Shown: one piece after another, positions 29,014 to 62,379 of the stretch
Numbering within the stretch: the stretch's first letter is position 1
Layout: every line of letters starts with the position of its first letter
From: Elusimicrobiota bacterium
GTDB lineage: Bacteria > Elusimicrobiota > Elusimicrobia > F11
Length of the DNA: 64,000 nucleotides
Reading direction: 5' to 3'
Assembly: GCA_044221725.1 (NCBI GenBank)
Contig: JBGAON010000003.1
Location: 1-64,000, forward strand
The notes under the pieces: model-generated
Databases searched by the model: none
What the model saw: only the letters and a program-made list of their open reading frames with translations
What the model was told of the DNA's origin: nothing
Translations under genes and position numbers: made by a program

Positions 29014-29038
29014 AAACTTTATTTTTAGGCTCGCGTAA
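29014..29038 (+). promoter_or_regulatory. ECF-type stress promoter AAACTT-N14-CGTAA (tal)
   Basis: Member of a 15-site recurring motif. Confidence 0.7.
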
Positions 29039-29052
29039 TAAAAGTAACGACC

Positions 29053-30180
29053 ATGAATCGATTACTCGAACTCAATAACGTTGGGCAAAGCGTATGGCTG
29101 GATTTTCTTGCGCGCAGTTACATTCGGCAAGGAAATCTCAAGAAACTCGTGATGGAAGACGGCGTCAGCGGCGTGACATCCAATCCGACGATTTTTGAAA
29201 AGGCAATTCTTGAAGAATCAACCTATGACGAAGCCATACGGCGCTATCTCGACGAGGGGCGCACCGCGGCTCAAGCGTTCGAAGCCATTGCGATTGAAGA
29301 TGTTCAGCAAGCGTGCGACATTCTAAGGCCGGTGTTTGAGCGAACCAAAGGCAATGATGGTTTTGTGTCGATCGAGGTCAGTCCAACGGTGGCGACCAAC
29401 ACGGTTGCAACGCTCGAAGAAGCGGCCCGACTCTACCGCGGAGTGAATCGACCAAATGCGATGGTCAAAATTCCGGCCACCGATGCGGGCATTCCGGCGA
29501 TTCAAGAAGCCATCAGTAATGAAATTAATATCAACGTGACGCTGATTTTCTCGTTGGAGCGGTATCAACAGGTGATTGGGGCGTGGCTCGGGGGGCTCAA
29601 GCAATTGGGCGATCGGGGCGGGAATATTGCGAACGTTACGTCGGTGGCGAGCTTTTTTGTGAGCCGGGTGGACACACTGGTGGACAAGCTGTTGGATGAA
29701 AAGATTAAGCAGACGAACGACGATCAGAAACGAACTCTTGAGTCCCTGAAAGGCAAGGCGGCCGTGGCCAATGCGCGTCAGGCGTATCAAATTTTTGAAA
29801 AGTTATCGCTCAATCCGGCGTTCAAGGCGCTTGAAGCAAAAGGGGCGCGGCTCCAGCGGCCGTTGTGGGCCAGTACGAGTTCGAAAAATCCCGCGTACCG
29901 CGACGTGATGTATGTGGAGAAATTGATCGGTCCCCACACCGTGAACACCATGCCCTTAAAAACAATGGAAGCGTTTAAAGATCACGGTGAAATAAAGCCA
30001 ACCATTTCTGAAAACCCCAACGAGTCGAAACAAATTCTCGACAGCTTGGAGCGAGCGGGGATCCGAATGCAGGTTGTCGGCGAAGAGCTTGAAAAAGAAG
30101 GTGTGCGTTTGTTTTCAGATTCTTATGCAAAGGTTGTTGAGAGTATTGGTCGAAAGCGCGAAAGGATCGGCGCAATCTAA
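29053..30180 (+). CDS. tal: Transaldolase
   Basis: WLDFL, GVTSNPTIF, MVKIPAT, NVTLIFS, ASFFVSRVD and RPLWAST. Confidence 0.95.
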   Translation: MNRLLELNNVGQSVWLDFLARSYIRQGNLKKLVMEDGVSGVTSNPTIFEKAILEESTYDEAIRRYLDEGRTAAQAFEAIAIEDVQQACDILRPVFERTKGNDGFVSIEVSPTVATNTVATLEEAARLYRGVNRPNAMVKIPATDAGIPAIQEAISNEININVTLIFSLERYQQVIGAWLGGLKQLGDRGGNIANVTSVASFFVSRVDTLVDKLLDEKIKQTNDDQKRTLESLKGKAAVANARQAYQIFEKLSLNPAFKALEAKGARLQRPLWASTSSKNPAYRDVMYVEKLIGPHTVNTMPLKTMEAFKDHGEIKPTISENPNESKQILDSLERAGIRMQVVGEELEKEGVRLFSDSYAKVVESIGRKRERIGAI

Positions 30181-30193
30181 AACGCGTTCGAGG

Positions 30194-30739
30194 CTATTTT
30201 TGGGGAGCTCGCTTCCACAGCACATCAATGTCGACCGGAGCCTCGTCTTTGATGGCGACGCCCATGAGCGATGGTCGATCGACACCGTGGCGGCTCAATA
30301 GCAGAGGAATGGTGCCTTTTACGCGAAAGGCATCGGCGGATTGGTCCGACACATCAAACCCAACGTCTTTGTAAGTTGTCTGTTTCCCACCGAATTCGAC
30401 CGTGAGATCGGTTTTAAAGGAGTTCTTGGGAGGTGCTTTGATTTGGACGCGCACCGACACCATGGGAAATTCTCCGCCGTGCACCGCTTGAATCATGTGC
30501 AAATCTCGGTTTTGATCGCCCGAGTCGAACGTTTTCACCGGTACCGCGACGAGAAAGTTGCATCCGTCGGCTTCGCAAACACCTTTCCCTTTCGCCGCTT
30601 CTGTCTTCCCAATCGTGTTATGAAACGGATGGTCCGCGTGGTAACGGATCACCGATTTTTCAACGAGCCAGATACTGTCGCCGGCCCAGGCTGCGGCAGC
30701 GGTCGCGAACAAGATGAACAACGCGAACCCCTTGTTCAT
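30194..30739 (-). CDS. YceI-family exported protein
   Basis: Signal peptide and the VPVKTFDSGDQNRDLHM YceI signature. Confidence 0.85.
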   Translation of the reverse strand: MNKGFALFILFATAAAAWAGDSIWLVEKSVIRYHADHPFHNTIGKTEAAKGKGVCEADGCNFLVAVPVKTFDSGDQNRDLHMIQAVHGGEFPMVSVRVQIKAPPKNSFKTDLTVEFGGKQTTYKDVGFDVSDQSADAFRVKGTIPLLLSRHGVDRPSLMGVAIKDEAPVDIDVLWKRAPQK

Positions 30740-31452: not shown

Positions 31453-31483
31453 AATGATCCCGATCATATCACGGAACAAAAGC

Positions 31484-31508
31484 GAACTTGCAACTGCACC
31501 CATCGTAA
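31484..31508 (+). promoter_or_regulatory. ECF-type stress promoter GAACTT-N14-CGTAA (HAD-ROK)
   Basis: Recurring motif. Confidence 0.75.
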
Positions 31509-31515
31509 GGAGGAT

Positions 31516-32220: not shown

Positions 32221-33191
32221 TGCCGAAACGGGCAACGGTGGGTATTGATATTGGGGGGACAAAAACGCTTTTCGCACTGTTTGACGAGAAATTCGGACTC
32301 ATCGAGGAAATAAAAGAGAAAACGCGCGCCACAAAAGGCGAAAAGAATTTTTCGGCGATGTTGGCCGACGCGCTGGGCGCTCTCGTTAAGACCGCAAAGA
32401 AAAAAGACCTCGCTATTTTGGCGGTGGGGGTTGGTTGCACCGGCACCGTTGACACGAAGACGGGCGAAGTCAAAAAGAGTCCGCACATTCCTTTCCTTGA
32501 GAAATATCCGCTGAAGAGCCGGTTGAACAAACTGGCGAGCGCCAACGTTCGTATCGTGAACGATGTTCAGGCGGGTTTGTATGGCGAGCATCAGCTCGGC
32601 ATCGCGAAAGGGCTTCGGCACGTCATTGGTATCTTTATCGGCACCGGAATTGGCGGCGCCATCATTATCGACGGGCATCTGCATCTCGGAGCCAAAGGAC
32701 ACGCTGGGAATATTGGTCATTATTCGACTCATTCGCCACCCGCGGGTGAAATACCCGGTAACAGCATCTTAAATGAGGTCGTGAGCCGACCCGCGATTGC
32801 GGCCGAAGCGGCGATGTTGGCCTCTCGGCATCAGGCGCCAAATTTTCTCAAGAATGTCGGCACGGACGTTTCGAAGATTACGAGTGCCGATTTGGCGCTG
32901 GCCATTGCGCAAGGGGACAAGAACATAGAACAGGTGATTCGGAATCGATCACGTCTTGTTGGCAATGCGCTTTCCAATATCGTGGATTTCCTTAATCCCG
33001 AGATGATTGTGTTGGGGGGCGGACTCGTCGAAGCAATGCCTGCGTTAATTCGCCAAGAAGTGGAAGCCGGCGTCAAAGCAACATCCACCAAAGAAGCGTT
33101 CGATGGATTGGAAATTGCTGTGGCCAAGCTTGGGAATCACGCGGTCACAACCGGCGCCGCAAAGCTGGCGAGTGACGTGGCGCTGAACTGA
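32220..33191 (+). CDS. ROK-family sugar kinase (glucokinase-like)
   Basis: GIDIGGTK, VND, GTGIGG, AGNIGH and LGGG. Confidence 0.9.
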   Translation: MPKRATVGIDIGGTKTLFALFDEKFGLIEEIKEKTRATKGEKNFSAMLADALGALVKTAKKKDLAILAVGVGCTGTVDTKTGEVKKSPHIPFLEKYPLKSRLNKLASANVRIVNDVQAGLYGEHQLGIAKGLRHVIGIFIGTGIGGAIIIDGHLHLGAKGHAGNIGHYSTHSPPAGEIPGNSILNEVVSRPAIAAEAAMLASRHQAPNFLKNVGTDVSKITSADLALAIAQGDKNIEQVIRNRSRLVGNALSNIVDFLNPEMIVLGGGLVEAMPALIRQEVEAGVKATSTKEAFDGLEIAVAKLGNHAVTTGAAKLASDVALN

Positions 33192-33209
33192 TTCTCGAAA
33201 AGAACGTAT
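33185..33209 (+). promoter_or_regulatory. ECF-type stress promoter GAACTG-N14-CGTAT (SRPBCC operon)
   Basis: Recurring motif overlapping the ROK stop. Confidence 0.65.
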
Positions 33210-33245
33210 TAAATTTGGACGAAAATCTTTTTTGGGAGCCATGTT

Positions 33246-33845: not shown

Positions 33846-33854
33846 GGGAAATGT

Positions 33855-35033: not shown

Positions 35034-35065
35034 GAATTTACGAATCAAAAAAACTAGGAGGCCTT

Positions 35066-35371: not shown

Positions 35372-35377
35372 AAGTCC

Positions 35378-35830: not shown

Positions 35831-35889
35831 AACGGGTTTTTCAATTCGTCGCCACTTTCTTTCGCGTGAACGTCGAAGTCGGCTTTTCA

Positions 35890-36993
35890 TTAGCGCGACA
35901 TTTCTGACGCGTTAATAAATTTCGGTTTGTCGACCGGTGGCAGTTTCTTCTTTTGCGATGGTTCGGCGGACGGCTTTTCCGGAATGTCCCGCAACGAAAT
36001 CTTTTTGCCGGTTTTAGCCGCTTCGTATATGGCGCGTATGATTTTCACGTCGTTCAAACCTTCTTGGCCCGACGGCTCCGGTTCTTGGTTTTTAAGAATG
36101 CAGTCCGAGAAATAAATGAGTTCGGCCGCGAATTGGTCGTGTTTGCCGAATTTTTTGCGCGTGGTCTTTTCGTTTATCGTGAGCTCGTAGGCCAACGGTT
36201 CCGCGTACTCGTACGAGGGATTCATTCGCAGGGACCCTTTGGTTCCCACGATCTCAAAAGCGCCGGTATCGCTCGCACCGAAACTGCTGATGAAGGTGGC
36301 GAAGCGGTCTGCGGGAAAGCGCAGCAAAACGCTGGTCATTTCATCCACTTCTTTAAAGCGCGAATATTTGCCGCCCGTTGAAAAAGCCTGCACCTCGAGC
36401 GGCTCGTCGCGGAACAGATATCGTGCTGCGTTCACGCAATAAACGCCAAGATCCCAAACGGATCCGCCTCCGAGACCGGCTTTCAGTCGGATATCTCCTT
36501 CTTTGACCTGTCGCGAAAAAAGCGAACCGAAAAAGCGAACGTCGCCGAGTTTTCCGTTCTTCACGAGTTTGATGGCTTCGAGGTTGGCTTCGTCAAAATG
36601 CAAACGGTAAGCGATCATGAGTTTTACTTTGTTTTTCTTGGCGGCCGCGATCATGTCACGGCATTCTTTTTCGCTGGTGGCCATCGGCTTTTCGCATAAC
36701 ACGTGCAATCCCGCATCGGCTGCTGCAATCGCGTATGGGGCGTGCAGGGAATTTGGCAGAGCGATGTAGACCGCATCGGCCACACCGGATTTCAGAAATG
36801 TGTCGTAGTGGTCGTAATCCGTAACGTTTGGAACGCGATACTTTTTGCCAAGCAACTCTTGCTTTTTCGCGTTGCCCGAAATGAGCGCGGTCAAGCGGGA
36901 GTTTTTTGCGTGTTTAAAACTTGGAAGCACGGCCGCCTGCGCGATGTAGCCGAGTCCCACCACGCCGTAACGGATGACGTTGGTAGATGCCAT
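35890..36993 (-). CDS. Gfo/Idh/MocA oxidoreductase (glucose-fructose oxidoreductase-like)
   Basis: GVVGLG, LPNSLH, HVLCEKP, AYRLHF and GGGSVWDLGVYC. Confidence 0.92.
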   Translation of the reverse strand: MASTNVIRYGVVGLGYIAQAAVLPSFKHAKNSRLTALISGNAKKQELLGKKYRVPNVTDYDHYDTFLKSGVADAVYIALPNSLHAPYAIAAADAGLHVLCEKPMATSEKECRDMIAAAKKNKVKLMIAYRLHFDEANLEAIKLVKNGKLGDVRFFGSLFSRQVKEGDIRLKAGLGGGSVWDLGVYCVNAARYLFRDEPLEVQAFSTGGKYSRFKEVDEMTSVLLRFPADRFATFISSFGASDTGAFEIVGTKGSLRMNPSYEYAEPLAYELTINEKTTRKKFGKHDQFAAELIYFSDCILKNQEPEPSGQEGLNDVKIIRAIYEAAKTGKKISLRDIPEKPSAEPSQKKKLPPVDKPKFINASEMSR

Positions 36994-37169
36994 TATTTTT
37001 TTCGGGGGACTTTCGCCCCGGACTTCCGTGCTTCGGACAGCCCGATGGCAATGGCTTGTTTCCGGTTCTTAACTTTTTTGCCCGAGCGACCGGATTTGAG
37101 TTTGCCCTCTTTGTACTCGTGCATCACGCGTTCCACTTTTTTTCCGGCCTTTTTTCCGTATCTCGCCAT
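36993..37169 (-). CDS. Small basic DUF6496-like protein (58 aa, below the track cutoff)
   Basis: MARYGKKAGKKVERVMHEYKEGKLKSGRSGKKVKNRKQAIAIGLSEARKSGAKVPRKK; RBS GAGGAGG; TAATG coupling to the Gfo gene. Confidence 0.88.
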   Translation of the reverse strand: MARYGKKAGKKVERVMHEYKEGKLKSGRSGKKVKNRKQAIAIGLSEARKSGAKVPRKK

Positions 37170-37200
37170 CGCTTTTCCTCCTCAGGATTTTCACTCCCTT

Positions 37201-37225
37201 GTACGCGCCGGGTTTAAAAAAGTTT
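37201..37225 (-). promoter_or_regulatory. ECF-type stress promoter AAACTT-N14-CGTAC (DUF6496-Gfo)
   Basis: Recurring motif; divergent pair with 37231-37255. Confidence 0.65.
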
Positions 37226-37230
37226 ATTTC

Positions 37231-37255
37231 CAACTCTTTATACGGTAACGCGTAT
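37231..37255 (+). promoter_or_regulatory. ECF-type stress promoter CAACTC-N14-CGTAT (YhfW-like)
   Basis: Recurring motif with a weaker -35. Confidence 0.55.
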
Positions 37256-37262
37256 CTATGGC

Positions 37263-38783
37263 ATGAGCACAGTTTGGGACGGCGTCCCGGTACCCCGATT
37301 TCCTTCTCTCCAGCAAGATGTTTCGGCCGACGTGTGCGTTGTTGGCTGCGGAATTGCTGGGCTGACCACCGCCTACCTGCTCCTGAAAGAAGGCAAGAGC
37401 GTCGTTCTCCTCGATGAGAAAAATCTCGGTCGCGGGGAAACGGGACTTACGAGCGCGCACCTGTCGAATGCGCTTGACGACCGGTATTACGCGCTTGAAA
37501 AGATTCACGGTGAACACGGAGCCAGACTGGCCGCCGAAAGCCACACCGCGGCCATCAACCGAATTGAACGGATCGCTCACGACGAAAATATTTCGTGTGA
37601 ATTCGCTCGTGTTGACGGTTATTTGTTCGCAGGGCGAAAAGAGCTGGAGCCGACATTGGAAGCAGAGTTCCACGCCGCGCGTCGCGCGGGAATATTTACC
37701 ATTGAGTGGGCCAACGCGGCGCCGTGGAAAGAATTTGACACCGGCAAATGTTTGCGGTTCCCCAACCAGGCGCAATTTCATCCGTTGAAATATTTGTTCG
37801 GGCTCGCGCAAACCGTAAAGAAAATGGGAGGACAGATTTACACGAATTCGCGTGCGGTGGAGTGTCACGGCGGCGCGTCGACGTCGGTGTTGTTAAAACA
37901 AGGCTCGATGGTACGGGCCAAAGCAATTGTTTTGGCCACGAATGTTCCCATCAACAACAGAGTCGCGATCCACACGAAACAAGTAGCGTACCGCACCTAT
38001 GTTATAGGTGTTCGAATTCCACACGGCAGTATTGAGCGCGCGCTCTATTGGGACAACGAAGATCCGTATCATTACGTCCGCTTGGAAAGCGACCCAAAAC
38101 ATTCCGCCGATGAGATTCTCATCGTGGGGGGAGAAGACCATCGAACCGGTGAGCCGGTGGACTACGAAAATCGATACGACCGCCTTGAAGCTTGGGCGCG
38201 CAGCCGTTTCCCGTTTGCGAAAGCGATCGAATACAAGTGGTCCGGCCAGATCATCGAGCCGGTGGATGGGCTTGCGTTCATCGGACGAAATCCGGCCGAT
38301 CATGACAACGTTTTTATCATCACCGGCGATTCAGGAAATGGCCTCACGCATGGCACGATCGGCGGAATGCTGATCACCGATCTCATTATGGAGCGCGAAA
38401 ATCCGTGGCGTGATCTTTACAACCCTTCGCGGCTGCCGCTTCACACGATCAAAGATTACGTGAAGCAGAACGCCGACGTTCTTCCGAAATACACGGAATG
38501 GGTGACGCCCGGAGAGATCAAATCCGAGTCTTATATCGAGCCCGGCACCGGAAAAATTATTCGCCGTGGCGCCCAAAAAATTGCCGCGTATCGTGACAAA
38601 GACGGCAAATTGCGTGAGCTCTCCGCGGTGTGTCCGCATCTGGGATGCATTGTCCACTGGAATTCCGCGGAACAAACGTGGGATTGTCCGTGCCACGGCT
38701 CTCGCTTCGATCCCGAAGGAACCGTTGTGAACGGTCCCGCCAACTCCAACCTTCACCCGATTCACGCCGAACTAAAAAAGTAA
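37263..38783 (+). CDS. FAD-dependent oxidoreductase with C-terminal Rieske domain (YhfW-like)
   Basis: VGCGIAGLT and QAQFHP; Rieske motifs CPHLGC and CPCHGSRF. Confidence 0.92.
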   Translation: MSTVWDGVPVPRFPSLQQDVSADVCVVGCGIAGLTTAYLLLKEGKSVVLLDEKNLGRGETGLTSAHLSNALDDRYYALEKIHGEHGARLAAESHTAAINRIERIAHDENISCEFARVDGYLFAGRKELEPTLEAEFHAARRAGIFTIEWANAAPWKEFDTGKCLRFPNQAQFHPLKYLFGLAQTVKKMGGQIYTNSRAVECHGGASTSVLLKQGSMVRAKAIVLATNVPINNRVAIHTKQVAYRTYVIGVRIPHGSIERALYWDNEDPYHYVRLESDPKHSADEILIVGGEDHRTGEPVDYENRYDRLEAWARSRFPFAKAIEYKWSGQIIEPVDGLAFIGRNPADHDNVFIITGDSGNGLTHGTIGGMLITDLIMERENPWRDLYNPSRLPLHTIKDYVKQNADVLPKYTEWVTPGEIKSESYIEPGTGKIIRRGAQKIAAYRDKDGKLRELSAVCPHLGCIVHWNSAEQTWDCPCHGSRFDPEGTVVNGPANSNLHPIHAELKK

Positions 38784-38816
38784 CCATTCGTTCGACCGGA
38801 GTGTCAGATCTTCGGT

Positions 38817-41230: not shown

Positions 41231-41239
41231 GTTTATGCA

Positions 41240-41264
41240 GAACCAAGCGGTTTCGCACTCGTAA
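41240..41264 (+). promoter_or_regulatory. ECF-type stress promoter GAACCA-N14-CGTAA (ku)
   Basis: Recurring motif; ATG is 7 nt downstream with no SD. Confidence 0.7.
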
Positions 41265-41271
41265 TAAAACC

Positions 41272-42096: not shown

Positions 42097-42119
42097 TGTT
42101 TAACATTGGAGGAGAATTC

Positions 42120-42290: not shown

Positions 42291-42293
42291 ATT

Positions 42294-44761: not shown

Positions 44762-44786
44762 TTACGCGGCTTCGTTTCAAAAGTTC
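44762..44786 (-). promoter_or_regulatory. ECF-type stress promoter GAACTT-N14-CGTAA (ligD)
   Basis: Recurring motif; ATG is 8 nt downstream with no SD. Confidence 0.75.
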
Positions 44787-44793
44787 TTGTTGA

Positions 44794-44819
44794 GAACCTT
44801 TTGTCCCAGCTTAACGTAC
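44794..44819 (+). promoter_or_regulatory. ECF-type stress promoter GAACCT-N15-CGTAC (DUF748)
   Basis: Recurring motif, divergent from the ligD promoter. Confidence 0.6.
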
Positions 44820-46605: not shown

Positions 46606-46630
46606 CTACGCGGTATCACGAAAATGGTTC
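46606..46630 (-). promoter_or_regulatory. ECF-type stress promoter GAACCA-N14-CGTAG (OmpA lipoprotein)
   Basis: Recurring motif. Confidence 0.65.
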
Positions 46631-46639
46631 TAAACCGTT

Positions 46640-46664
46640 GAACTTTCAGAAATGACCATCGTAA
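46640..46664 (+). promoter_or_regulatory. ECF-type stress promoter GAACTT-N14-CGTAA (BON protein)
   Basis: Recurring motif. Confidence 0.75.
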
Positions 46665-49501: not shown

Positions 49502-49502
49502 G

Positions 49503-50498: not shown

Positions 50499-51751
50499 AG
50501 AGGTTTTTGCAACTCCTTTCCTAAGGCTTTCATCCATTGGGCTTCGGCAACGACGGCGTCGCGCTGAGCACGCACCAACGTTTGTTCAAACGTCACACGT
50601 GTGGTCACGATCTGTTCCCAATTTTCGTACGTTAAGAGTCCATTCGAATAGCGGATATCGGCTTCGCCGTTTTGTTGGCGCGATGCTTCGAGAAATGCGG
50701 TTTGCACGGTCACTTGATCCTCGGCACCGACAAGATTCGCCCACACTGTTTCAAAGTTGCTGAGAACTTGGTTTCGGGTGGAGCGAAGATTTTGCTCGGC
50801 GCCTTCGAGTGCGCGTTTTGAGCCCGATACCGAATAGTACGCGGCGGTCGGACCTCCCGCGAACAGCGGATAACGGACGACGCCGGAGGCGGTCCAATTC
50901 ATTCCGGTGGGGAAGTAGTCGGGTCCTTGGTAAGAGCGATTGTAATTAGCGGACAGTGTGGGCCACAGAGCGCTTTTTGATTTTTGCACATTTGCAAGGG
51001 CGGTCTCCACGTTCGCTAGTTGAACCCGAACCGTCGGATGATTGTCCACAAGCGTTTTAAAATCTTGTCGCTCTTCGGTCGCGGTCGTGACCGTGAGCGT
51101 GCCCGTTCCAATATGCGCGACGAACTCATCTTCGCCCAGTTGATGACCAAGCTCTTGTTGGGCGGCCCGTAGGTCGCGGTACGACTGTTCCAAGTCTGCC
51201 TTTGCGCTTAGCAGCTCGGCTTTCGCACGCATCATGTTTCCTTTTGATTCACGTCCCGAGTTGTAGCGCAAGTTCACCATCTTTGAATTTCGGTCGCGGA
51301 TCTCGAGAATTGTCTTGGACACATCAATTTGTTTCTGCGCGTACAATAATTGTGTGAACGCCTGACGCAAACCAAACCGGGTATTTGAAGACACAACACG
51401 ATAATTCGCCACCGACCGTTCGTATTCCGCGGATGCCGCGTGGATGTTCGCAAACGCCGATTGATCAAAAATGTCCCATGTGGCCGAGGCGCCGGCGCCC
51501 CAGCGGCCGCTTCCATCATCGAAACGAAAACGGTTGTAGCTGGAGGAGAGATTGAGTTTTGGCATCACGCCGTTGTAGCTGCCTTTGTATTGCGCGCGGT
51601 TGGCTTCGACGCTGCGCTGGGCCGAAATTTGGTCGGGGTTGTTGTCGACGGCAATTCGCTCACAATCGTCCCAGGTTAATACCGGTTCCGCAGACGCGAC
51701 CGTGGATAAGATAGGAAGTGAGAGAAGAGCGAAAAATACGGATGGCTTCAT
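50495..51751 (-). CDS. TolC-family outer-membrane efflux protein
   Basis: Signal peptide and duplicated OEP repeats (NNPD...MPKLNL; NHP...WPTLSA); coupled to macA. Confidence 0.88.
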   Translation of the reverse strand: MKPSVFFALLSLPILSTVASAEPVLTWDDCERIAVDNNPDQISAQRSVEANRAQYKGSYNGVMPKLNLSSSYNRFRFDDGSGRWGAGASATWDIFDQSAFANIHAASAEYERSVANYRVVSSNTRFGLRQAFTQLLYAQKQIDVSKTILEIRDRNSKMVNLRYNSGRESKGNMMRAKAELLSAKADLEQSYRDLRAAQQELGHQLGEDEFVAHIGTGTLTVTTATEERQDFKTLVDNHPTVRVQLANVETALANVQKSKSALWPTLSANYNRSYQGPDYFPTGMNWTASGVVRYPLFAGGPTAAYYSVSGSKRALEGAEQNLRSTRNQVLSNFETVWANLVGAEDQVTVQTAFLEASRQQNGEADIRYSNGLLTYENWEQIVTTRVTFEQTLVRAQRDAVVAEAQWMKALGKELQKPL

Positions 51752-51759
51752 ATTACATA

Positions 51760-51784
51760 GACGTTCCAATCGATAAAAAGTGTC
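51760..51784 (-). promoter_or_regulatory. Second ECF-type promoter class GACAC-N16-CGTC (tolC-macAB)
   Basis: Minus strand reads TGACACTTTTTATCGATTGGAACGTCTA; a near-twin lies at 52362-52387. Confidence 0.6.
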
Positions 51785-51817
51785 AGATTTCTTTGACTTT
51801 AGGCAAAATGACGAACC

Positions 51818-52393
51818 ATGTCAGTCAGCAACGATTTGAATGTCGTTCGATCGGTTCGAAATGGAAACGTTGAGGATTACGCGTTGCTCGTACGCGAACA
51901 TCAATCTCGCGTCATTTCGTTCTGTTTCAACTTGCTAAGGAACATCGCCGAAGCGGAAGACGCTGCCCAAGACATTTTTGTGAAGGCTTATTCTTCGCTG
52001 GATCAATTTCGCGGCGAATCCTCATTTTCAACCTGGATCTGCCGGATCGCGCACAACCATTGCTTGGATATTTTGCGCCGAAAATCGCGTCAAAAAACGG
52101 ACTCTCTCGACCAATTGATGGAAGATCGGCCCGCGACCGCCGAGGCCCTGTTTGCCTCAACTCCGTCTCCTAATAATAAGGAGGAACGTTTCCTTCTCGA
52201 AGAAGCGCTCGCCTCCTTGGGCAACGACGCGCGCGAAATCCTTACGCTGCGGGAAGTGGGTGGTTTGACTTACGACGAGATTGCCGGGCAATTAAATTGC
52301 TCAATTGACGCGGTGAAATCGCGCCTCAAGCGCGCACGACAAGAGCTTCAGCAAAAAGCGCGACACTTTTTGGGTTCATCCAACGTCCAATAG
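51818..52393 (+). CDS. ECF (sigma-70 group 4) RNA polymerase sigma factor
   Basis: AEDAAQDIFVKAY, FSTWICRIAHN, LTYDEIA and VKSRLKRAR. Confidence 0.95.
   Translation: MSVSNDLNVVRSVRNGNVEDYALLVREHQSRVISFCFNLLRNIAEAEDAAQDIFVKAYSSLDQFRGESSFSTWICRIAHNHCLDILRRKSRQKTDSLDQLMEDRPATAEALFASTPSPNNKEERFLLEEALASLGNDAREILTLREVGGLTYDEIAGQLNCSIDAVKSRLKRARQELQQKARHFLGSSNVQ
52362..52387 (+). promoter_or_regulatory. Second ECF-type promoter class GACAC-N17-CGTC (anti-sigma operon, inside the sigma 3' end)
   Basis: GACACTTTTTGGGTTCATCCAACGTC shares GACACTTTTT and AACGTC with the tolC site. Confidence 0.55.
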
Positions 52394-52410
52394 ATAGCAA
52401 GGAGAAGAAT

Positions 52411-52845
52411 ATGAACCATGACCAAATAAGAGAACTCCTGTTTGATTATTACGATAACGAATTGCGGGGTGAAACCGCGGCGGAAGTGAAGTCGCACATC
52501 GCCGGTTGCCGTGAGTGCGCATCAAATATCCGGGGTTGGGCGTCGACCGCGAGGCTCGTATTCGACCCGGAGCGGCCGGCATCCGAGGTGTTTGTTCGAC
52601 GGGTGATGAACTGTGTGCGTCCGCAGCGCTCGGCGATTCCATGGCTGTTTCCGGCGTTATCGACACTCGCGTTCGCTGGTTTCCTTTTCGTGGTCCTCGG
52701 CTTTCACCGCGAAGAACCGCAGGTCTCGGTGGATTCGCTGCTGTTGTGTTCGAAAACCGAAACCGCACCGGTCGAATGGTTGCCGTCGTCCTCGGATTTG
52801 CCAAAGGACGATCAGGTATTGGATTACGCGTTGGGGGGAATATGA
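52411..52845 (+). CDS. Zinc-binding anti-sigma factor (zf-HC2/ZAS) with TM helix
   Basis: HIAGCREC (HxxxCxxC) and a single TM segment. Confidence 0.88.
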   Translation: MNHDQIRELLFDYYDNELRGETAAEVKSHIAGCRECASNIRGWASTARLVFDPERPASEVFVRRVMNCVRPQRSAIPWLFPALSTLAFAGFLFVVLGFHREEPQVSVDSLLLCSKTETAPVEWLPSSSDLPKDDQVLDYALGGI

Positions 52846-53222
52846 AGCCTGTTGTGAAATACGGTGTGGCCTTTTTTTTCGTTGGTTTGCTCGTCGGCGG
52901 CATTGTGGGACGTTGCTTGTCTCCCGGATTTTTTTATCGACGCCTGCCGGCGGAAAAGCGCCAAGAACGCACCCTAAAAAGATTTGGTTCGAAATTAAAT
53001 TTGAATCCCGAGCAAAGGGAAAGCATTCGCAAGATTCTTGCGTCGCGGCGTGAACAAATCGATGGACTGTTGACGGAGGTCCGTCCAAAGTTCGAAGCGA
53101 TTCGTAACGAGACCGCCGACGAAATCCGCAAACAACTGAACGGAGATCAGGTGCAGAAATACGATGAGATGCACAAGCGCTACATGGAGCGGTGGAAAAC
53201 GCGCTTTCTCACCGATAATTAA
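52842..53222 (+). CDS. Periplasmic Spy/CpxP/heavy-metal-sensor-like accessory protein
   Basis: ATGA-coupled start at 52842; TM anchor; LNLNPEQ and LNGDQ motifs. Confidence 0.7.
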   Translation: MKPVVKYGVAFFFVGLLVGGIVGRCLSPGFFYRRLPAEKRQERTLKRFGSKLNLNPEQRESIRKILASRREQIDGLLTEVRPKFEAIRNETADEIRKQLNGDQVQKYDEMHKRYMERWKTRFLTDN

Positions 53223-55127: not shown

Positions 55128-55138
55128 AGCCACCACCC

Positions 55139-55163
55139 ATACGGTGGCCGGCACGGAAAGTTC
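55139..55163 (-). promoter_or_regulatory. ECF-type stress promoter GAACTT-N14-CGTAT (DUF5752-treT)
   Basis: Recurring motif. Confidence 0.75.
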
Positions 55164-55172
55164 TGAGAATCC

Positions 55173-55197
55173 GAACCTATCCCAAGAAATTCCGTAT
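55173..55197 (+). promoter_or_regulatory. ECF-type stress promoter GAACCT-N14-CGTAT (glgX)
   Basis: Recurring motif. Confidence 0.7.
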
Positions 55198-55225
55198 TCA
55201 GGAGTGCCTGACAAAGGAGGCGCTC

Positions 55226-57448
55226 GTGCAACTGAAACCAGGAATGCCTTACCCTCTTGGTGCTGTTTGGAACGGGTTGGGGGTCAATTTCGCGCTTTAT
55301 TCCGAACACGCGGAAAAAATTGAGCTTTGTCTTTTCGATTCGCCCGACGCGACCAAAGAATCCAAACGCATCGAATTGCGAGAAAAAACCGACATGGTCT
55401 GGCATGGATTTCTGACGGATCTTCTGCCAGGCCAGCTTTATGGATACCGCATTTATGGACCGTACGATCCAAACGCGGGGCACCGCTTTAATCCAAACAA
55501 AGTTTTGTTGGATCCGTACGCGCGTGCGATCGGCCGTCCGGCCCAGCTCGTGAACGAATCGTTTGGATACGAAATTGGTCACGGAGATCTTGACTTATCG
55601 TTCGACAAACGTGACAACGCGGCGACCGCGCCGCTGGGTGTTGTCGTCGACACCGCGTTCACCTGGGGAAACGATGCGCCGCCGCACACGCCTTGGCACA
55701 AAACCGTAATTTACGAGACGCACGTGAAAGGCATGACCAAGCTTCATCCGCTTGTGCCCGAAAAATTGCGCGGCACCTACGCCGGTCTGTGCACCGATGC
55801 GGTGTTGTCCCATCTGAAATCGTTGGGCATTACGGCCATTGAACTTTTGCCCGTGCATTATCACGTTCCCGATAAATCGCTGCTGGACAAAGGGCTGTCC
55901 AATTATTGGGGTTACAATTCAATAGGCTTTTTTGCGCCGGATGTCCGGTTCGGTGCCGACAAGCGTGCCGATGAGTCGGTTCGCGAATTTAAAAGAATGG
56001 TCGCCACGTTTCACGCGGCCGGCATCGAAGTGATTCTTGATGTGGTTTACAACCACACGGCCGAAGGAAATCAAATGGGTCCCACGTTGTCGTTGCGCGG
56101 CATCGACAACGCTTCCTACTACCGGCTTTCACCGCAAGATGCACGGTATTACATGGACTTTACCGGCTGCGGCAACACGCTAAACATGGACAACCCGCGC
56201 GTTCTTCAACTGATCATGGACAGTTTGCGTTATTGGGTGCTTGATATGCACGTGGATGGTTTTCGGTTCGACTTGGCGAGCACACTCGCGCGCGAGCTGC
56301 ACGACGTGAACAAGCTCGGCGCCTTTTTCGACATCATTCACCAAGATCCGGTGCTCTCGCGTGTGAAATTAATTGCCGAGCCGTGGGATCTGGGCGAAGG
56401 TGGGTATCAGGTGGGGAATTTTCCAATCGGTTGGACCGAGTGGAACGGCAAATACCGCGACACGGTTCGCAGCTTCGTGAAGGGCGACGGTGGCGTCGTC
56501 TCGGAGTCGGCGACGCGGTTGTCGGGAAGCAGCGATTTGTACGAGACAAGTGGTCGGCGGCCGTACGCCAGCATCAATTTTGTGACGTGCCACGACGGCT
56601 TCACATTAAACGATGTGGTCAGCTACAACGAAAAACACAACGAAGCGAACGGCGAAAACAATCAAGACGGTGAAAACAACAACCGAAGTTGGAACTGCGG
56701 CGCCGAAGGACCCACGGACAACGCGGAAATTATCGCACTGCGCGAACGGCAGAAACGAAATTTCTTAGCGATCCTCATGTTTTCGCAGGGAGTTCCAATG
56801 TTGTGCGGCGGCGACGAGATTGGTCGCACGCAGAAAGGAAACAACAACGCGTATTGTCAAGACAACGAAATAAACTGGTTTGACTGGAATCTCACGCCCG
56901 ACAAGCAAGCGCTGCTCGAATGGACGCAGCGCGTGATCCGCATCCGGCTCAACCAGCCGGTGTTTCAGCGCCGCAAATTTTTTCAAGGTCGATCGATTCG
57001 CGGCAGCGGTATCAAAGACATTTCGTTTTTTGAGCCATCGGGCCAGGAAATGACCGATGAAGCATGGGCCACCGATTTCGTTCGTTGCTTGGGCGTGCGA
57101 TTGGCCGGAGACAACATTGATGAAGTCGACGCGAACGGACAGAAGATTTTTGGTGACACGCTTTTGTTTCTTGCGAACGCGCACCACGACGCGATTCCTT
57201 TTACTTTGCCGGTGACCGCTGGGCAAAAAACGTGGGAGTGTGTGTTGGATTCGTCGGAACCCGAAATCACGTCCCGTATGTGCAAATCGGAAGTGCCTTA
57301 CGAATTGAAAGGAAGATCGGTCGCGCTCTTAAAAGTTGCGATGCCCGCCAAGAGAGTTCAGGACGTTACTTCCAAAAAAGATATCGGCAGCGGATTGAAC
57401 AATTCGGAAACCCGAAGCACCCACTCGTTGTCGACCAGCGTCGCCTGA
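55226..57448 (+). CDS. glgX: Glycogen debranching enzyme GlgX/TreX (GH13)
   Basis: [37 protein letters not shown] and NNAYCQDN. Confidence 0.95.
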
Positions 57449-60246
57449 ACGACACGGCCCGTGAACACGTCTCGGAACAGGCCGAGCGGTGAAAATGTTT
57501 TATTGACGAAAATGTTTGTCGTTTGCCAGGTGTCGGGAAAACGCGGAGGCGCATTTTCTTCGCGAAGTGTTTGAAAGAATCGGCCCGTCGCCGTGATTGT
57601 GCGCTTGTTATCGAGATCGCGAGCAAACGCGCACACGTGCTTTTCACGGTCCCCTCGCACCTTGAGCGCGTAATACGCACCGTCGCGCATGAGCTGTTCC
57701 TCTCGTCGACGAAAGTTCAATAGCCGGTTCGTCACGTAAAGCTTTATTAATCCGTCCTTCAACGATGCGGCGAGCTCGTGCATCGTGCCCAAGGGATTGG
57801 TTTCGATTTTCTTCCGGTTGTCGGAAAGCCACTTGCGTGGCGTTTTGTAGTCAACGGCCGCGCGATTGTCGGGGTCGACCAGCGTGAAATTCCACATTTC
57901 GGATCCTTGATACAAGTCGGGAATTCCCGGTGACGTGAGTTTTAGCACCTGTTGCGATAATGAGTTTAGTAACCCCGATTCAATAATGGATTCGTGGAAC
58001 TCGCCGAATTCTTTTGGAAATCGATTGTCGTGTGTAGGCGACAGCGCCGCGCGCACGAAATGCGATAGGGCTTTTTCGTAATCCGCGTGCGGGTTGACCC
58101 AGCTTGAATGAACCTTCGCTTCCTTAAGCGCTTTCTGCATATAGTTCTCAATGCGGCTACAATATTTCTCCCACTCTTTTTCGTTCAGGTACGTCATGGG
58201 CCAGGTTCCAACGAGTGTTTGATAGAACAAATATTCCTCGTTCGCGTCGGGTGCAAAGCCATGGTTCAGTGCCATCTTGTGCACTTTGTTCGTCGTTTGC
58301 CATTGAAGAATGGCGCGGTACCATTTAATCGGAATTTCGGACAGCACATTGATGCGGGCGCGTACGTCTTCGCTGCGCTTCGTATCGTGCGTGGTGGTTG
58401 CCAGCATGGTGTGCGGCCACGTTTTTGCGCGCTCTTCGTTTTTCCGGTGGAAATCATCAAGCGATGTGCCAAATAAATCCGGTCGCCCGCCCACTTCATT
58501 TAGTGAGGCCAGCGGGAAATAACGGTAAAAAGCCGTGTCTTCGACGCCTTTCGCGGTCACCGGGCTCGTGAGCTGTTGAAATTTAATGATGAAATTTTGG
58601 CGCTCGGAAATTTGCGATGCGCTCAGGCCTTGCGGGTCGTTTCGCAGCAGCACACTTTCGATGAAATCGAAAATCGATTCGCTCATTGACGGATTTCTTT
58701 CTTTGGCTTCGCGCACCGCCGTTTGTATGGAGCGCCGATCTTCGTCGTCAATCGTGTCATCGGCTTTGCGGTAATAGCTGCGGTAGGTGGGGAAGCACGC
58801 GATCACTTCGCGCAGCGCGAAACGCAAACTGTCGAAAGTGAAGTCGCGCGACCAGCGGTGATGTTCCGAAATTCGGTCGAGATGCGAGGCCAATACGTTC
58901 AACTCGCTCGCCAAAGACACATGCATGACGACCCGCTTGCAGGCGAACGCGACATCTTTGAACGATCGCGAATGGCCCGTGAAACGACGATAGAGGTCGA
59001 AAAATTTTTCGATGTATCTCCTATCGACAAACAAACCGTTCAACTGGTTCATGAAGTCGTAACCGGTGGTGCCCTGAATTTTCCACTGTTCGCGAAGCTT
59101 CTCGTTCGGCATAAGAATTTTTTCAACGACAATATAAGGCGTGGATGCACCGCCGTTTTCAACGGGAATCATGCTTTTTTGCGCGAGCTCTTCGAGGTAG
59201 CCGGTGGGATCGGCAAGGCCATCGACGTGGTCGATTCGCAACCCGTTCACGTGTCCGTCGGCAATAAGCCGGAGCGTAAGGTTGTGCACGGCGTCGAACA
59301 CGTCCGCCTCTTCGACACGGACGGCGGCCAAAAAGTTGATGTCGAAAAACCGACGGTAATTTATTTCGTCGGCGGCAACGCGCCAATAACACAAGCGGTA
59401 AACCTGATCGTTCAACAGATTTTCCAATCCGTCGAAGCTGTGCGGATCGCCGGGGCTTCCGTTCAGTTTTTCGAGCGCGGAGTCGAGCGCTTTGCGAAAC
59501 CGTACGTTTGTTTTGAGCAAGGCCGCGAAACGTCGCCGGATCACTTCCTTCTCGCGGTAGCGTTCCCGTACTTTTTCTGGACGCGTGTCCGTTCGAAGCG
59601 GCAGGTAATCGACAGCGGTGCGCACGCTTTCGAATTCCAGCATATCCGGTTCGTTTGCGTTTTCACTGTTCAGCTCACTCGCCATAAGCCCGAGAATCAG
59701 AGACCACGAGCGGGGGGCAATCGGATAACGAGACGTTTCGTAGCGAGCGACAAACAAACCGTTTTCAAAAGCGAGAGCTATTTTTTGATCTTCGAGCGCC
59801 TTTCCGTATTGATCGCCGAGTTCGGGCAACAGGATCTTGTTCGCAAGGTCCACCTTGGGAGGATGCCAGTCAATGTCAAAATAACCGGCGTACGGTGAAC
59901 TCGGGCCGTTTTCGAGAACATCGTTCCACCATGGATTTACGGATTCGGTAATGCACATGTGGTTCGGAACCACATCAAGGATGAGGCCAATATTGTTTTT
60001 CTTGAGACTTTCAGCGAGCCGAGCGAAGCTGGTGTCCGACCCGATTTCTGGGTTTAGCTGCCGATGATCAACGACGTCATAGCCGTGCTCGCTCCCAGGC
60101 CGCGCTTTGAAGATCGGCGACGCGTAACAAGCGCCAATACCAAGATCATCAAAGTAATCGACCAAAGAGCGGGCATCATCGAAAGTGAAGTTCCGATTGA
60201 ATTGGAGGCGATAAGTGGAAGTGGGGACGAAAACATGGCTCGCCAT
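57358..60246 (-). CDS. treY: Malto-oligosyltrehalose synthase (GH13)
   Basis: [52 protein letters not shown] and THDTKRSED. Confidence 0.95.
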
Positions 60247-60395
60247 CAGACCACGTTACGTCCTTGAATAAGCCGGACGAGAATCGCAATGATGGCCAGC
60301 ACAAGTAACACATGAATAAAACCACCCATCGTGTACGAGGACACCAGTCCCAACAGCCACAGTATTACGAGGACAACCGCAATTGTGTAAAGCAT
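60246..60395 (-). CDS. lmo0937-family small membrane protein (49 aa, below the track cutoff)
   Basis: [62 protein letters not shown] coupling to treY. Confidence 0.9.
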
Positions 60396-60434
60396 ATAGA
60401 GCTCCTTTTGCCCCGATATTTTACGTCCCCCTCT

Positions 60435-60459
60435 TTACGCTTAATGAGTGGGAAAGTTC
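60435..60459 (-). promoter_or_regulatory. ECF-type stress promoter GAACTT-N14-CGTAA (lmo0937-treY), overlapping the treZ stop
   Basis: Recurring motif. Confidence 0.72.
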
Positions 60460-62312
60460 ATGGCAGTGAACAGAAATGATGAAGTGGACGGAAGATGCCA
60501 CTGGGTTTTGAACTGCGGTTTCTTGTCGGTGCCGCCGTAACGTCGATCTTCGCTCGACCAGGTTAAATGCCACGATTGGTTTTCCGGTGCGGCGATCAGC
60601 GGTTCGGAGCACGGGTCGAATATGAAGTCGGGCCCGAGATTCGTAACGAGCAATCGATCGCCGTGCTCGGAATCAAAAAATCGAATGAGAAACGCATGGG
60701 ATCCCAATACGGCTGTGTCCAATTGAAACCGGTCTTGGCGCTCGATCGCAGGGTCCGCTTTGCGCAGCGCGATCAGATCTTTGTGAAGCAGGTAAATATC
60801 TTTGTGGTCGTTCCGCTCGTTTAAGTTTAATTTTGCGGACCGGAACGTGCGTTCGTCGGTAGGTTTTGGGAACGCCCTCAATCGTTCGGGCGCCGCGTCG
60901 TCGATAAATTGCGTAACGAATTTTCGGCGTCCTTCGTTCACGGAATTCGCAAGGTCTCCCTGGTGATCGCAAAAAAACGGGAATGGGCTTGTGGCTCCAA
61001 ATTCTTGTCCCATAAAGATCAGTGGGGTCGTTGGTCCAAGAAAGAGCACCGCGGCCATCGCGCGGTAGGTTGCCGAACTTGTGAGCGCATGGATGCGATG
61101 GCCGCCCACGTCGATGGAAATCTGATCGTGGTTCTGCAGGTACGTGACGAAGGCCTCCGCCGGTTGGAACGTCACTGGTTTCCCGCGCGGTCCGTTCAAA
61201 AAGACCGAATGCTGCCCTTGGTACAAAAACATGTCTTTTGTTAACGAAGCGAATTCTTGTGGGGGGCCGGCAAAGTCCGAAAAATAGTTCTTGCGATTGC
61301 CCGTGAGCGCGACGCGCGCCGCGTGGTGAAAATCATCGTTCCAGACGCCATCCAACCCATACCCGCCTTCCTTGATGGAAGTAATGAGCCGAACGTCTTG
61401 CGTGTCGTTTTCGGCGATAAGAATCAGCGATTTCTCTGGCGCGACGGATCGCACGGCCTTCGAGATGTCGGCGAGAATATGAACCGGACTTTTGTCGTAA
61501 ATGTTCTGCGTAGCGTCGAGGCGAAGTCCGTCGAAATGGAATTCTCGGATCCAGTAGCACGCGTTCTGGATAAAAAAATTTCGAACGTGCTCGGAATTGG
61601 GGCCATCAAAATTGATCGAGTCTCCCCAATCGGTTGCTTTGTGTTTGACCATGTAGTCGTCGCTAAAGGAACCGAGGTAATTCCCGTCGGGGCCCAAGTG
61701 ATTGTAAACCACGTCCAAAATCACGCCCATCCCCAGACCGTGCGCCGCATCCACAAATTGCTTCACCGCATTCGGGTCGCCGTAGACGTGATAAGGCGCA
61801 AACATCCCAACGTTGTCGTAACCCCAGTTCCATCGCCCGGCGTTTTCATGCAACGGCATTATTTCGATTGTCGTGATCCCGAGTGTCTTTAATTCCTTTA
61901 GTTCTCTTTGTGCCGCCGCGAACGTGCCTTCCTGCGTGAAGGTGCCGATGTGCAGTTCGTAAATGATTTGGCCGTGCATGGACACACCGGACCATTGGTT
62001 GTCGCGCCATTGGTAGAAGGCCGGATCAATGACAACCGAGTCGCCATGGGGGCCCTCGGGCTGAAATCGCGAACACGGATCGGGTGTTTCTCCGTCACCG
62101 TTCAGTCTGTACCTGTAGCGCGTGCCCGCGCGGAGGTTTGTTACCACCGTTTGGAAATAACCATCGGATGACGGCGATAGCGGAACGATGGAGGAGGGCG
62201 GGTCCTTTAATACGAGGTCAACCGAGCGACATTTGGGGGCCCACACAAGAAATTGTGTGCCCTCGCGTTTGAAATTCGCACCGAGCCACAACTCTTGCTC
62301 CAATAATTTCAT
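60441..62312 (-). CDS. treZ: Malto-oligosyltrehalose trehalohydrolase (GH13)
   Basis: PDPCSRFQPEGPHG, YELHIGTFT, NWGYD, DVVYNHLGP, DGLRLDAT, WNDDFHH and QNHDQ. Confidence 0.93.
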   Translation of the reverse strand: MKLLEQELWLGANFKREGTQFLVWAPKCRSVDLVLKDPPSSIVPLSPSSDGYFQTVVTNLRAGTRYRYRLNGDGETPDPCSRFQPEGPHGDSVVIDPAFYQWRDNQWSGVSMHGQIIYELHIGTFTQEGTFAAAQRELKELKTLGITTIEIMPLHENAGRWNWGYDNVGMFAPYHVYGDPNAVKQFVDAAHGLGMGVILDVVYNHLGPDGNYLGSFSDDYMVKHKATDWGDSINFDGPNSEHVRNFFIQNACYWIREFHFDGLRLDATQNIYDKSPVHILADISKAVRSVAPEKSLILIAENDTQDVRLITSIKEGGYGLDGVWNDDFHHAARVALTGNRKNYFSDFAGPPQEFASLTKDMFLYQGQHSVFLNGPRGKPVTFQPAEAFVTYLQNHDQISIDVGGHRIHALTSSATYRAMAAVLFLGPTTPLIFMGQEFGATSPFPFFCDHQGDLANSVNEGRRKFVTQFIDDAAPERLRAFPKPTDERTFRSAKLNLNERNDHKDIYLLHKDLIALRKADPAIERQDRFQLDTAVLGSHAFLIRFFDSEHGDRLLVTNLGPDFIFDPCSEPLIAAPENQSWHLTWSSEDRRYGGTDKKPQFKTQWHLPSTSSFLFTAMNFPTH

Positions 62313-62319
62313 ACCCCCT

Positions 62320-62344
62320 ATACGGTTCAAAGTGATTCAAGTTC
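62320..62344 (-). promoter_or_regulatory. ECF-type stress promoter GAACTT-N14-CGTAT (treZ)
   Basis: Recurring motif; ATG is 7 nt downstream. Confidence 0.75.
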
Positions 62345-62353
62345 AAGTCCAAT

Positions 62354-62379
62354 GAACTTTTCAGACGGAGGGTTCGTAA
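62354..62379 (+). promoter_or_regulatory. ECF-type stress promoter GAACTT-N15-CGTAA (OMP-DGC operon)
   Basis: Recurring motif. Confidence 0.65.

Follow-up and report, generated by a model that had tools for sequence, protein, structure and literature searches.

The first 64,000 nucleotides (nt) of contig C5 (JBGAON010000003.1) of an Elusimicrobiota bacterium (GenBank assembly GCA_044221725.1; genome G000), hereafter the window, contain a cluster of stress genes at 29.0 to 62.4 kb that share an upstream element, GAACTT-N14-CGTA. The best overall explanation of the sequence data, which we consider probable, is that this element is a promoter read by a sigma factor of the extracytoplasmic function (ECF) type encoded at C5:67750 (the C5 sigma) and that it drives the stress genes, some 20 other genes and the operon of the sigma factor itself. 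The window corresponds to positions 1 to 64000 of C5, and coordinates run on along that contig. The G000 assembly consists of 2.82 Mb in 5 contigs and is 93.9% complete. Its ribosomal protein uS3 is a modest pointer to the phylum, the closest Atlas cluster being from Elusimicrobiota (score, 0.95) and the runners-up from other phyla (0.94). It was compared within a set of 41 genomes that includes G000 (G-numbered labels); the relatives are kin and hence not independent.

The putative promoter motif

The original prediction, made from the letters of the window, named 15 sites of an ECF-type promoter. All of them are present where it placed them, on the same strands and oriented toward the genes that it named. 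The gene labels, checked by Pfam and NCBIfam, hold as well: TreY, TreZ, and GlgX score above the cut-offs and TreT scores below. “YhfW” and “lmo0937” stand for the DAO+Rieske protein and DUF5670, respectively. The list was nevertheless incomplete, as there is a probable 16th site, of the CGTT type, at 38769-38792. The predicted lack of the motif before the NO-cluster genes tested and before tolC-macAB is borne out by best scores of ≤5.8 bits; one 9.8-bit hit upstream among these genes contains neither AAC nor CGT.

Over the 15 sites, the −35 element has G in 12, followed by AAC and by T in 11, 11, and 10 sites, respectively. CGTA is found in all 15, which had been selected on it, at AAC+16 in 13 cases and at AAC+17 in two (44794 and 62354). 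The degenerate pattern of the original prediction is matched 22 times in the window, namely, by the 15 named sites and by 7 others inside called genes. Enrichment was judged against dinucleotide shuffles, a reversed-pattern control, and antisense matches. The stretch from 29.0 to 62.4 kb contains 19 matches, compared to 2.1 expected (maximum of 6 in 100 dinucleotide shuffles), and a sense match is found within 120 nt upstream of 11 of the 32 called cluster genes, compared to 0.13 in shuffles (maximum of 2 in 1000), a count that misses the cluster genes dropped or mis-started by the simple gene caller. These figures are partly circular because the pattern was derived from the same sites. Outside the cluster, where the count is not circular, 39 of 2,222 genes have a sense match, compared to 6.9 ± 3.2 in 30 shuffles (maximum of 17) and 17 antisense matches. 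Enrichment over shuffled DNA, whose absence would have refuted the original prediction by its own terms, is thus seen both inside and outside the cluster. A similarly non-circular count of spacers peaks at 16 (9 inside the cluster and 37 outside) and 17 (3 and 24), with the other 12 spacings giving 0 to 1 inside and 6 to 16 outside.

A site matrix trained on the 15 window sites gave them leave-one-out scores of 9.7 to 22.1 bits. With this 15-site matrix, 13 non-cluster genes score at least 14 bits, compared to 2.5 in shuffles, and 52 score at least 10 bits, compared to 31.5, an excess of about 20. The element thus has the features of an ECF (group 4) promoter, namely, a bipartite AAC...CGT structure, fixed spacing, and enrichment upstream of genes. 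As in an ECF (group 4) regulon, the same motif is found upstream of an ECF sigma gene and is kept in its orthologs. Judging from these features, the motif is almost certainly a promoter.

Six of the 15 window sites end 8 to 9 nt before a start codon (those of HAD, DAO+Rieske, ku, ligD, DUF748, and treZ). Genome-wide in G000, an ATG opening at least 50 codons follows the motif at 8 nt in 13 cases and at 9 nt in 6; this peak of start-codon distance is absent when CGTA is taken alone. In G003, the 8-nt spacing is seen again upstream of the DAO+Rieske ortholog and of one SDR, one PLD, and one epimerase gene. In the part of PMC3397946 that deals with a Thermoanaerobacter ECF sigma factor, CGTN is mapped at −13 to −10. 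This position makes +1 coincide with or adjoin the start codon, so transcription likely starts 8 to 9 nt after CGTA and the six respective window mRNAs are likely leaderless. Our literature search for leaderless ECF stress regulons returned no papers.

Of the 15 window sites, ten are arranged back to back in five pairs (37202-37254, 44763-44818, 46607-46663, 55140-55196, and 62321-62378). Genome-wide, there are 7 such pairs with gaps of 5 to 11 nt; random placement, a null model in which clustering is disregarded, would give 0.18. The paired layout recurs in relatives, with gaps of 4 to 40 nt. In the window pairs, the −35 elements are 7 to 11 nt apart, which by the usual footprint is too close for two polymerases at once.

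Near-identical sequence is present in wastewater metatranscriptome runs from one study. In four of these runs, the 44.2- to 64-kb region is represented only by short shallow contigs with a mean depth of ~0 to 6, over motif and non-motif genes alike, and neither transcription starts nor induction are apparent in them. A DNA-pattern scan of named genomes returned a single relative, distant and uninformative.

Extent of the cluster and of the predicted regulon

Past 64 kb, the cluster continues with a Dps-like ferritin gene and a site that precedes genes for DUF883 and holin-X; these are followed by the sigma operon and by a divergent gene of the superoxide dismutase (SOD) family. Its composition is native: the tetranucleotide distance lies at the 19th percentile of 33-kb windows, and the G+C content is 52.7%, compared to 52.1%. 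It is therefore a gene cluster and not a recent horizontal island, a reading that was rejected on the same two measures. The “physically clustered” island of the original prediction accordingly stands as to the clustering of stress genes; it is not compositionally foreign and holds only part of the regulon. About 20 more promoters are found elsewhere in G000, and the non-cluster targets identified include genes for DUF4142, DUF2383, DUF883, cupin, and hemerythrin domain proteins, an MscS channel, an AI-2E transporter, and a pterin dehydratase. At C1:150000-241000, genes with the motif are concentrated a second time, though more loosely, and many of these genes code for short proteins without a Pfam family.

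Ku/LigD, BON, and DUF6496 genes belong to SigB, RpoS, or EcfG regulons in other organisms. Going by gene content only, we infer induction by desiccation or stationary phase.

The candidate regulator

The sigma factor was expected to be encoded outside the window, and a candidate was indeed found on the same contig, 3.75 kb beyond the window end, with the motif upstream of its own gene. G000 has 10 Sigma70_r2 matches, of which the six ECF-type ones were compared. The site upstream of the C5 sigma gene (19.4 bits) is the second highest among the 30 non-cluster genes listed. Region 4.2 of the C5 sigma is identical to that of Escherichia coli RpoE at 7 of the 9 positions checked (P166, G168, T169, R171, S172, R173, and F175), and region 2.4 has D at RpoE position 84, within a DxxR motif. 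Passages of PMC7776599 name R171, S172, and F175 as residues that set the −35 bases, the section of the PMC7826278 supplement on the RpoE group gives promoters with GAACTTT, and part of PMC3397946 ties the D of the DxxR motif to CGT recognition. The C5 sigma is favored because it combines an upstream motif of its own with fitting −35 and −10 recognition residues, and we think it very likely that this sigma factor rather than a paralog reads the motif.

Two genes lie downstream of it (Table 1). The anti-sigma factor has one likely membrane helix (peak hydropathy, 1.78); the family search gave only a weak zf-HC2 hit and no RseA-family match. The 335-residue protein has a weak MucB_RseB_C hit below the cut-off, and a fold search was needed because its BLAST comparison with E. 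coli RseB (~13% identity) was not significant. In that search, the ten best PDB matches of its fold model, which has a predicted local distance difference test (pLDDT) score of 79, were all RseB or MucB (best E value, 4.8e-14). A model of the sigma/anti-sigma complex scored 0.72, compared to 0.00 for the best control, with at least 94% of contacts agreeing between runs and a partner pLDDT of 88; of the solved pairs, 116 of 157 reach that mark, as do 2 of 215 mismatched ones, and likeness to solved complexes may explain the pass. G000 also encodes an M50 protease and three trypsin-like proteases, and one DegP-like gene has a weak site (10.0 bits).

The original prediction of an ECF-type promoter before general-stress genes is thereby supported. 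Its reference to SigB, RpoS, or EcfG regulons needs refinement: the candidate regulator is none of these but an ECF factor with an anti-sigma factor and an RseB-fold partner.

Clade A and its motif in related genomes

The sigma tree, which lacks SigE and SigW rows and has long-branch joins among the outgroups, groups the C5 sigma with six genes of G003, G004, G005, G009, and G011 as clade A (support, 98/92), so that, with G000, six genomes have a clade-A sigma. Across 20 related sigma loci, AAC-N16/17-CGTA lies upstream in 14; another 3 show CGTC, and the last 3 show neither. Within clade A, the motif lies directly upstream of 5 of the 7 genes; in G004, it is reached via a co-directional gene in front. 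Contig C51 of G011 carries two clade-A sigma genes in tandem, with the motif upstream of the second only. Sites also cluster near the clade-A gene; a 7.7-kb contig of G005 carries 7 exact matches, and one of 10.4 kb in G003 carries 5. Those near the sigma gene in G003, G005, G009, and G004 precede similar targets, and the targets shared with relatives are SOD, DUF883, Dps-like ferritin, DUF6496, DUF5670, DUF5752-treT, and glgX, names that were assigned by sequence likeness and checked in part. HxxxCxxC is absent from all six clade-A anti-sigma factors and kept in 5 of the 6 others aligned. The Atlas neighbors of the C5 sigma are clusters from Armatimonadota, Binatota, and other phyla.

Genomes with and without clade A are separated most cleanly by DUF5670. 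The motif precedes it in all five clade-A genomes that hold the gene (15.5 to 22.6 bits, four of them out of sample) and is missing at all 9 loci of the 7 genomes that lack clade A (≤4.8 bits). For DUF6496, the motif is found in 3 of 3 cases with clade A and 0 of 2 without. The Dps-like gene is less clean, with scores of 17.8 in G005, 9.9 in G003, 7.3 in G000 (inside an operon), −3.9 in G018, and −3.1 in G027. Two further footprinting markers were rejected: Ku as too rare, and DUF5752 because a site within 200 nt was found only at the window copy among 19 of 22 loci (two weak hits and one fragment were dropped). In G003, the DUF5752 site lies ~209 nt upstream, and many other DUF5752 copies are inside operons.

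Several observations weigh against a stress regulon read by the C5 sigma. Whole-genome exact-pattern counts are 16 versus 13 in the reversed control for G000, 22 versus 14 for G003, and 12 versus 9 for G009, and they fall below the control in G005 (5 versus 19), G004 (3 versus 13), and G011 (5 versus 11). In another such comparison, two genomes of the same genus without a clade-A match are depleted (12 versus 47 for G001 and 15 versus 64 for G002), but G004 (12 versus 56) and G011 (12 versus 33) are depleted too, despite having clade A, so raw counts prove little. Start-codon distances also include 6 cases at 10 nt and 4 at 7 nt, with 0 to 3 at other distances. The genomes in the DUF5670 and DUF6496 profiles are kin, and a single DUF5670 control (G008) comes from the same family; the Dps-like gene of that genome, which has no clade-A sigma, scores 9.9 bits without the AAC core. 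Ku is present in only 3 of the 41 genomes and lacks the motif in the other two. A near-identical motif precedes recA and competence genes elsewhere (see below), so the motif alone is not diagnostic of stress. Finally, two other sigma factors of G000 come into question, a paralog of the C5 sigma and one whose gene also carries the motif.

Other candidate regulators

The first of these is the clade-B paralog C1:139744, which could read the promoters either alone or together with the C5 sigma. It is 53% identical to the C5 sigma, keeps D84, and has its own anti-sigma factor, MucB_RseB gene, and protease neighbor, and portions of PMC8103513 describe paralogous ECF factors (EcfG1/EcfG2) that can act in one response. 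However, R171 is replaced by C in this protein, and upstream of clade-B genes, GAAGAA stands in place of GAAC in G000 and G011, with scores of 3.0 to 7.2 bits at all four loci. G003 and G005 (91% and 83% complete) have the regulon with no clade-B match at E ≤ 1e-45, whereas G007, with clade B only, has no match to DUF5670, DUF6496, or the Dps-like protein. A relaxed −35 (AA[AGT]) gave no leaderless peak, so no clade-B regulon was found. This alternative is improbable. The paralog lies in a degP-ECF-anti-sigma-RseB operon (C1:138398-141307) whose anti-sigma factor lacks ~26 residues covering the zinc-finger segment.

The second is the orphan ECF factor C3:659947, whose gene has the motif 28 nt upstream (17.2 bits), stands among stress-type genes (a treZ-like gene, a debranching enzyme, and DUF2383), and has an ortholog in G003 (54% identity). 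It has N at position 84 and K171, A172, and Y173 in region 4.2, residues that do not fit the motif. Furthermore, G004, G009, and G011 have no match to it above 31% identity, yet G004 and G009 carry the motif before DUF5670. We consider it quite unlikely to be the reader; it is more simply a downstream target. The surrounding region, C3:653000-666000, forms a second cluster with a poly-HAMP hybrid kinase, response regulators, the orphan motif-bearing ECF gene, the second treZ-like gene, the debranching enzyme, and DUF2383, and possibly represents a sigma cascade.

Slightly more remote is the idea that the motif is an operator for another regulator or that the genes are run mainly by the RpoS-like group 2 sigma factor C5:375227-376057 (rpoS_proteo is its best model, with 265 bits against a cut-off of 378.7). 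The seven back-to-back pairs do look pseudo-palindromic, but their gaps vary (5 to 11 nt within G000, 4 to 40 nt among relatives), and the motif itself is bipartite and one-directional, with a fixed N16/17 and a start-codon peak at 8 to 9 nt. The motif also tracks the ECF clade, and the RpoS-like gene has no site (0.9 bits).

Last, the ECF gene at 51818-52393, which the original prediction did not mention, is placed mid-cluster and encodes D84 but was rejected and is hardly credible as the regulator, having no upstream site (−2.1 bits) and a −35 helix that does not match (S166, D168, A169, K171, and K175 in region 4.2), along with a 46%-identical relative in G002, where the pattern is depleted. 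The C5 sigma thus remains the favored reader of the motif.

A sister sigma with a similar motif

A tighter motif, GGAACTWWT...TCGTA, is found in three other families, with 27 matches versus 0 in the control in G040 and 18 versus 2 in G034; the counts in G006, G018, and G023 are 0 to 1. While exact-pattern counts against the reversed control separate genomes poorly, this tighter pattern alone separated them. Its loci (14 each in G040 and G034, and those of G027 as well) precede recA, comM, comEC, comF, ORF6N, SpoVG, DUF1016, IS200-like transposase, and integrase genes, frequently at 8 nt from the start codon, as well as a sister ECF sigma (clade C). This gene set is a candidate competence or DNA-repair regulon. 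In G000, the upstream stretches of recA, comM, and comF that were checked contain no site. Different families therefore use the same putative promoter core for different sets of genes. On contig C108 of G019, six motif sites lie around another sigma of this family and precede genes for response regulators, a kinase, and an exported protein, which are not classic stress genes.

As a tentative scheme, to which we give somewhat less than an even chance, one ECF family with a SigE-like sigma, a zinc-finger-derived anti-sigma factor, and an RseB-fold partner may have split into paralogs that kept nearly the same GAACTT...CGTA promoter and often leaderless mRNAs while taking on unrelated programs. 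Clade A, whose anti-sigma factor lost the zinc ligands, would run general stress in the family of G000; the sister clade would control recA, comM, comEC, and mobile elements in other families as a competence or DNA-damage switch; and clade B would have shifted its −35 through the R171 change. If true, this would be an example from nature of entire regulons being exchanged while the promoter code stays nearly constant.

Sites and genes along the contig

The tolC-macA-macB operon, with its divergent ECF, zf-HC2 anti-sigma, and LTXXQ-like genes (47519-53222), interrupts the stress cluster and lacks the motif. The glgX (55226-57448) and treY (57358-60246) genes converge, and their frames overlap by ~90 bases.

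Table 1. Motif sites and selected genes in the window and in the adjoining part of contig C5
Feature	Position	Strand	Remarks
Motif site	29014..29037	+	15 nt before transaldolase gene (29053-30180)
Motif site	31484..31507	+	8 nt before GTG (31516) of HAD hydrolase gene, then ROK gene; likely leaderless
Motif site	33185..33208	+	37 nt before SRPBCC gene, then zinc alcohol dehydrogenase gene
Motif site	37202..37225	-	32 nt before DUF6496 (36993-37169), then Gfo/Idh/MocA; back-to-back with 37231 site
Motif site	37231..37254	+	8 nt before DAO+Rieske ATG (37263); likely leaderless
Weaker candidate site	38769..38792	+	CGTT at −10, score 7.8; before UPF0164 gene (38817)
Motif site	41240..41263	+	8 nt before ku ATG (41272); likely leaderless
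Motif site	44763..44786	-	9 nt before ligD ATG (44753); likely leaderless; back-to-back with 44794 site
Motif site (N17)	44794..44818	+	9 nt before DUF748 ATG (44828); likely leaderless
Motif site	46607..46630	-	32 nt before OmpA-family ATG (46574); back-to-back with 46640 site
Motif site	46640..46663	+	Before triple-BON protein gene (46692/46704-47492)
ECF sigma of tolC-macAB module	51818..52393	+	With zf-HC2 anti-sigma; no motif upstream
Motif site	55140..55163	-	Before DUF5752-treT; back-to-back with 55173 site
Motif site	55173..55196	+	29 nt before glgX (55226)
Motif site	60436..60459	-	40 nt before DUF5670 (60246-60395), then treY
Motif site	62321..62344	-	8 nt before treZ ATG (62312); likely leaderless; back-to-back with 62354 site
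Motif site (N17)	62354..62378	+	38 nt before outer membrane protein beta-barrel gene (62417-62992)
REC-GGDEF-EAL gene, start	62996..64000	+	Cut by window end
Dps-like ferritin gene	C5:64707-65273	+	Past window end
Motif site	C5:65265-65288	+	Before DUF883 and holin-X genes
RseB/MucB-fold gene	C5:66256-67263	-	335 aa (amino acids)
Anti-sigma gene	C5:67256-67732	-	158 aa
ECF sigma gene, likely regulator	C5:67750-68307	-	3.75 kb past window end
Motif site of the sigma gene	C5:68335-68358	-	27 nt upstream, 19.4 bits

Proposed mechanism and comparison with known systems

In the RseA/RseB and MucA/MucB systems, stress triggers proteolysis of the anti-sigma factor, gated by an RseB-type partner. By analogy, stress would trigger proteolysis of the membrane anti-sigma factor of G000, gated by the RseB-fold partner. 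The freed C5 sigma would then amplify itself and transcribe genes for end-joining repair (Ku and LigD), glycogen-to-trehalose conversion (GlgX, TreY, TreZ, and TreT), iron and oxidant defense (Dps-like and SOD), and small envelope proteins. Release of the sigma factor by regulated proteolysis after envelope or osmotic stress appears moderately likely from this parallel.

The closest parallel in mechanism is provided by AlgU-MucA-MucB and RpoE-RseA-RseB (ECF02). Both have a sigma factor, a membrane anti-sigma factor, and an RseB/MucB-fold protein encoded in a row, with the RseB-like gene at +2 as here, and share the −35 GAACTT(T) and a near-identical region 4.2. In addition, passages of a Pseudomonas study (bioRxiv 10.1101/523126) report that AlgU is needed for treZ induction and that AlgU co-regulated genes occupy one chromosomal block, PA2134-PA2192. 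In contrast to ECF02, the −10 here is CGTA rather than GTCT and position 84 is D rather than N; the C5 sigma reaches 86 bits with the RpoE model, for which the cut-off is 236, and falls outside the RpoE branch; the anti-sigma factor is of a decayed zinc-finger type with no RseA match, and the RseB partner has the low identity noted above; and many targets here look leaderless. Thus, while the predicted mechanism likely works like that of AlgU-MucA-MucB, the C5 sigma is by its −10, anti-sigma family, and model score not an ECF02 member.

The closest described sequence is actinobacterial SigE (ECF14; Mycobacterium tuberculosis SigE-RseA), which is the best NCBIfam model for the C5 sigma (156 bits; cut-off, 265) and its best PDB sequence match (E value, 1.4e-34). 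Here too, a zinc-finger-derived anti-sigma factor is encoded at +1, with HxxxCxxC kept in the relatives outside clade A, and SigE has a broad stress role according to the ECF14 part of the PMC7826278 supplement. The promoter listed there for ECF14, CTACTGG, does not match. Moreover, the clade-A anti-sigma factors have lost the zinc ligands, the gene at −1 is of the SOD family and divergent instead of coding for an O-methyltransferase, and the one at +2 codes for an RseB-fold protein instead of a trypsin-like peptidase. By these features, the predicted regulator is not a clean ECF14 member.

Bacillus subtilis SigW (ECF245) is the second-best model for the C5 sigma (136 bits, below the cut-off of 209), and SigW promoters have AAC-N16-CGT spacing. 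The −35 differs (TGAAAC there and GAACTT here), and SigW targets are cell-envelope defense genes. The −10, CGTA(T), and autoregulation are alike, as given in the SigW entry of the PMC7826278 supplement. The pairing of GAACTT with CGTA does not occur in the passages with GAAC (20) or CGTA (6) in the available portion of that ECF classification supplement, and the word “Elusimicrobia” is absent from the main text of the paper and from the same portion of its supplement. Our literature search for sigma regulons of Elusimicrobiota returned nothing relevant. The predicted promoter of G000 pairs an RpoE-type −35 with a SigW-type −10.

The targets of EcfG-NepR-PhyR (ECF15, Alphaproteobacteria) overlap in type with those described here, including Ku/LigD and trehalose genes. 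The two would also be alike in having an ECF sigma as the master general-stress regulator, the role ascribed to EcfG in sections of PMC8103513. They differ in the promoter, which for EcfG is GGAAC with CATT in the respective PMC7826278 supplement entry, and in the NepR/PhyR partner switch, instead of which we find a likely membrane anti-sigma factor and an RseB-fold protein encoded next to the C5 sigma gene (PhyR was not sought genome-wide).

The analysis puts forward a candidate master switch for stress in an uncultured lineage, together with its promoter and ~35 promoters of predicted targets, and each link is testable in a standard heterologous reporter. It also points to RseB-type control of a sigma factor outside Proteobacteria; an RseB-like protein has reportedly been described in B. 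subtilis (PMC7769602). The general idea is already known from AlgU and EcfG, which show ECF sigma factors running stress genes.

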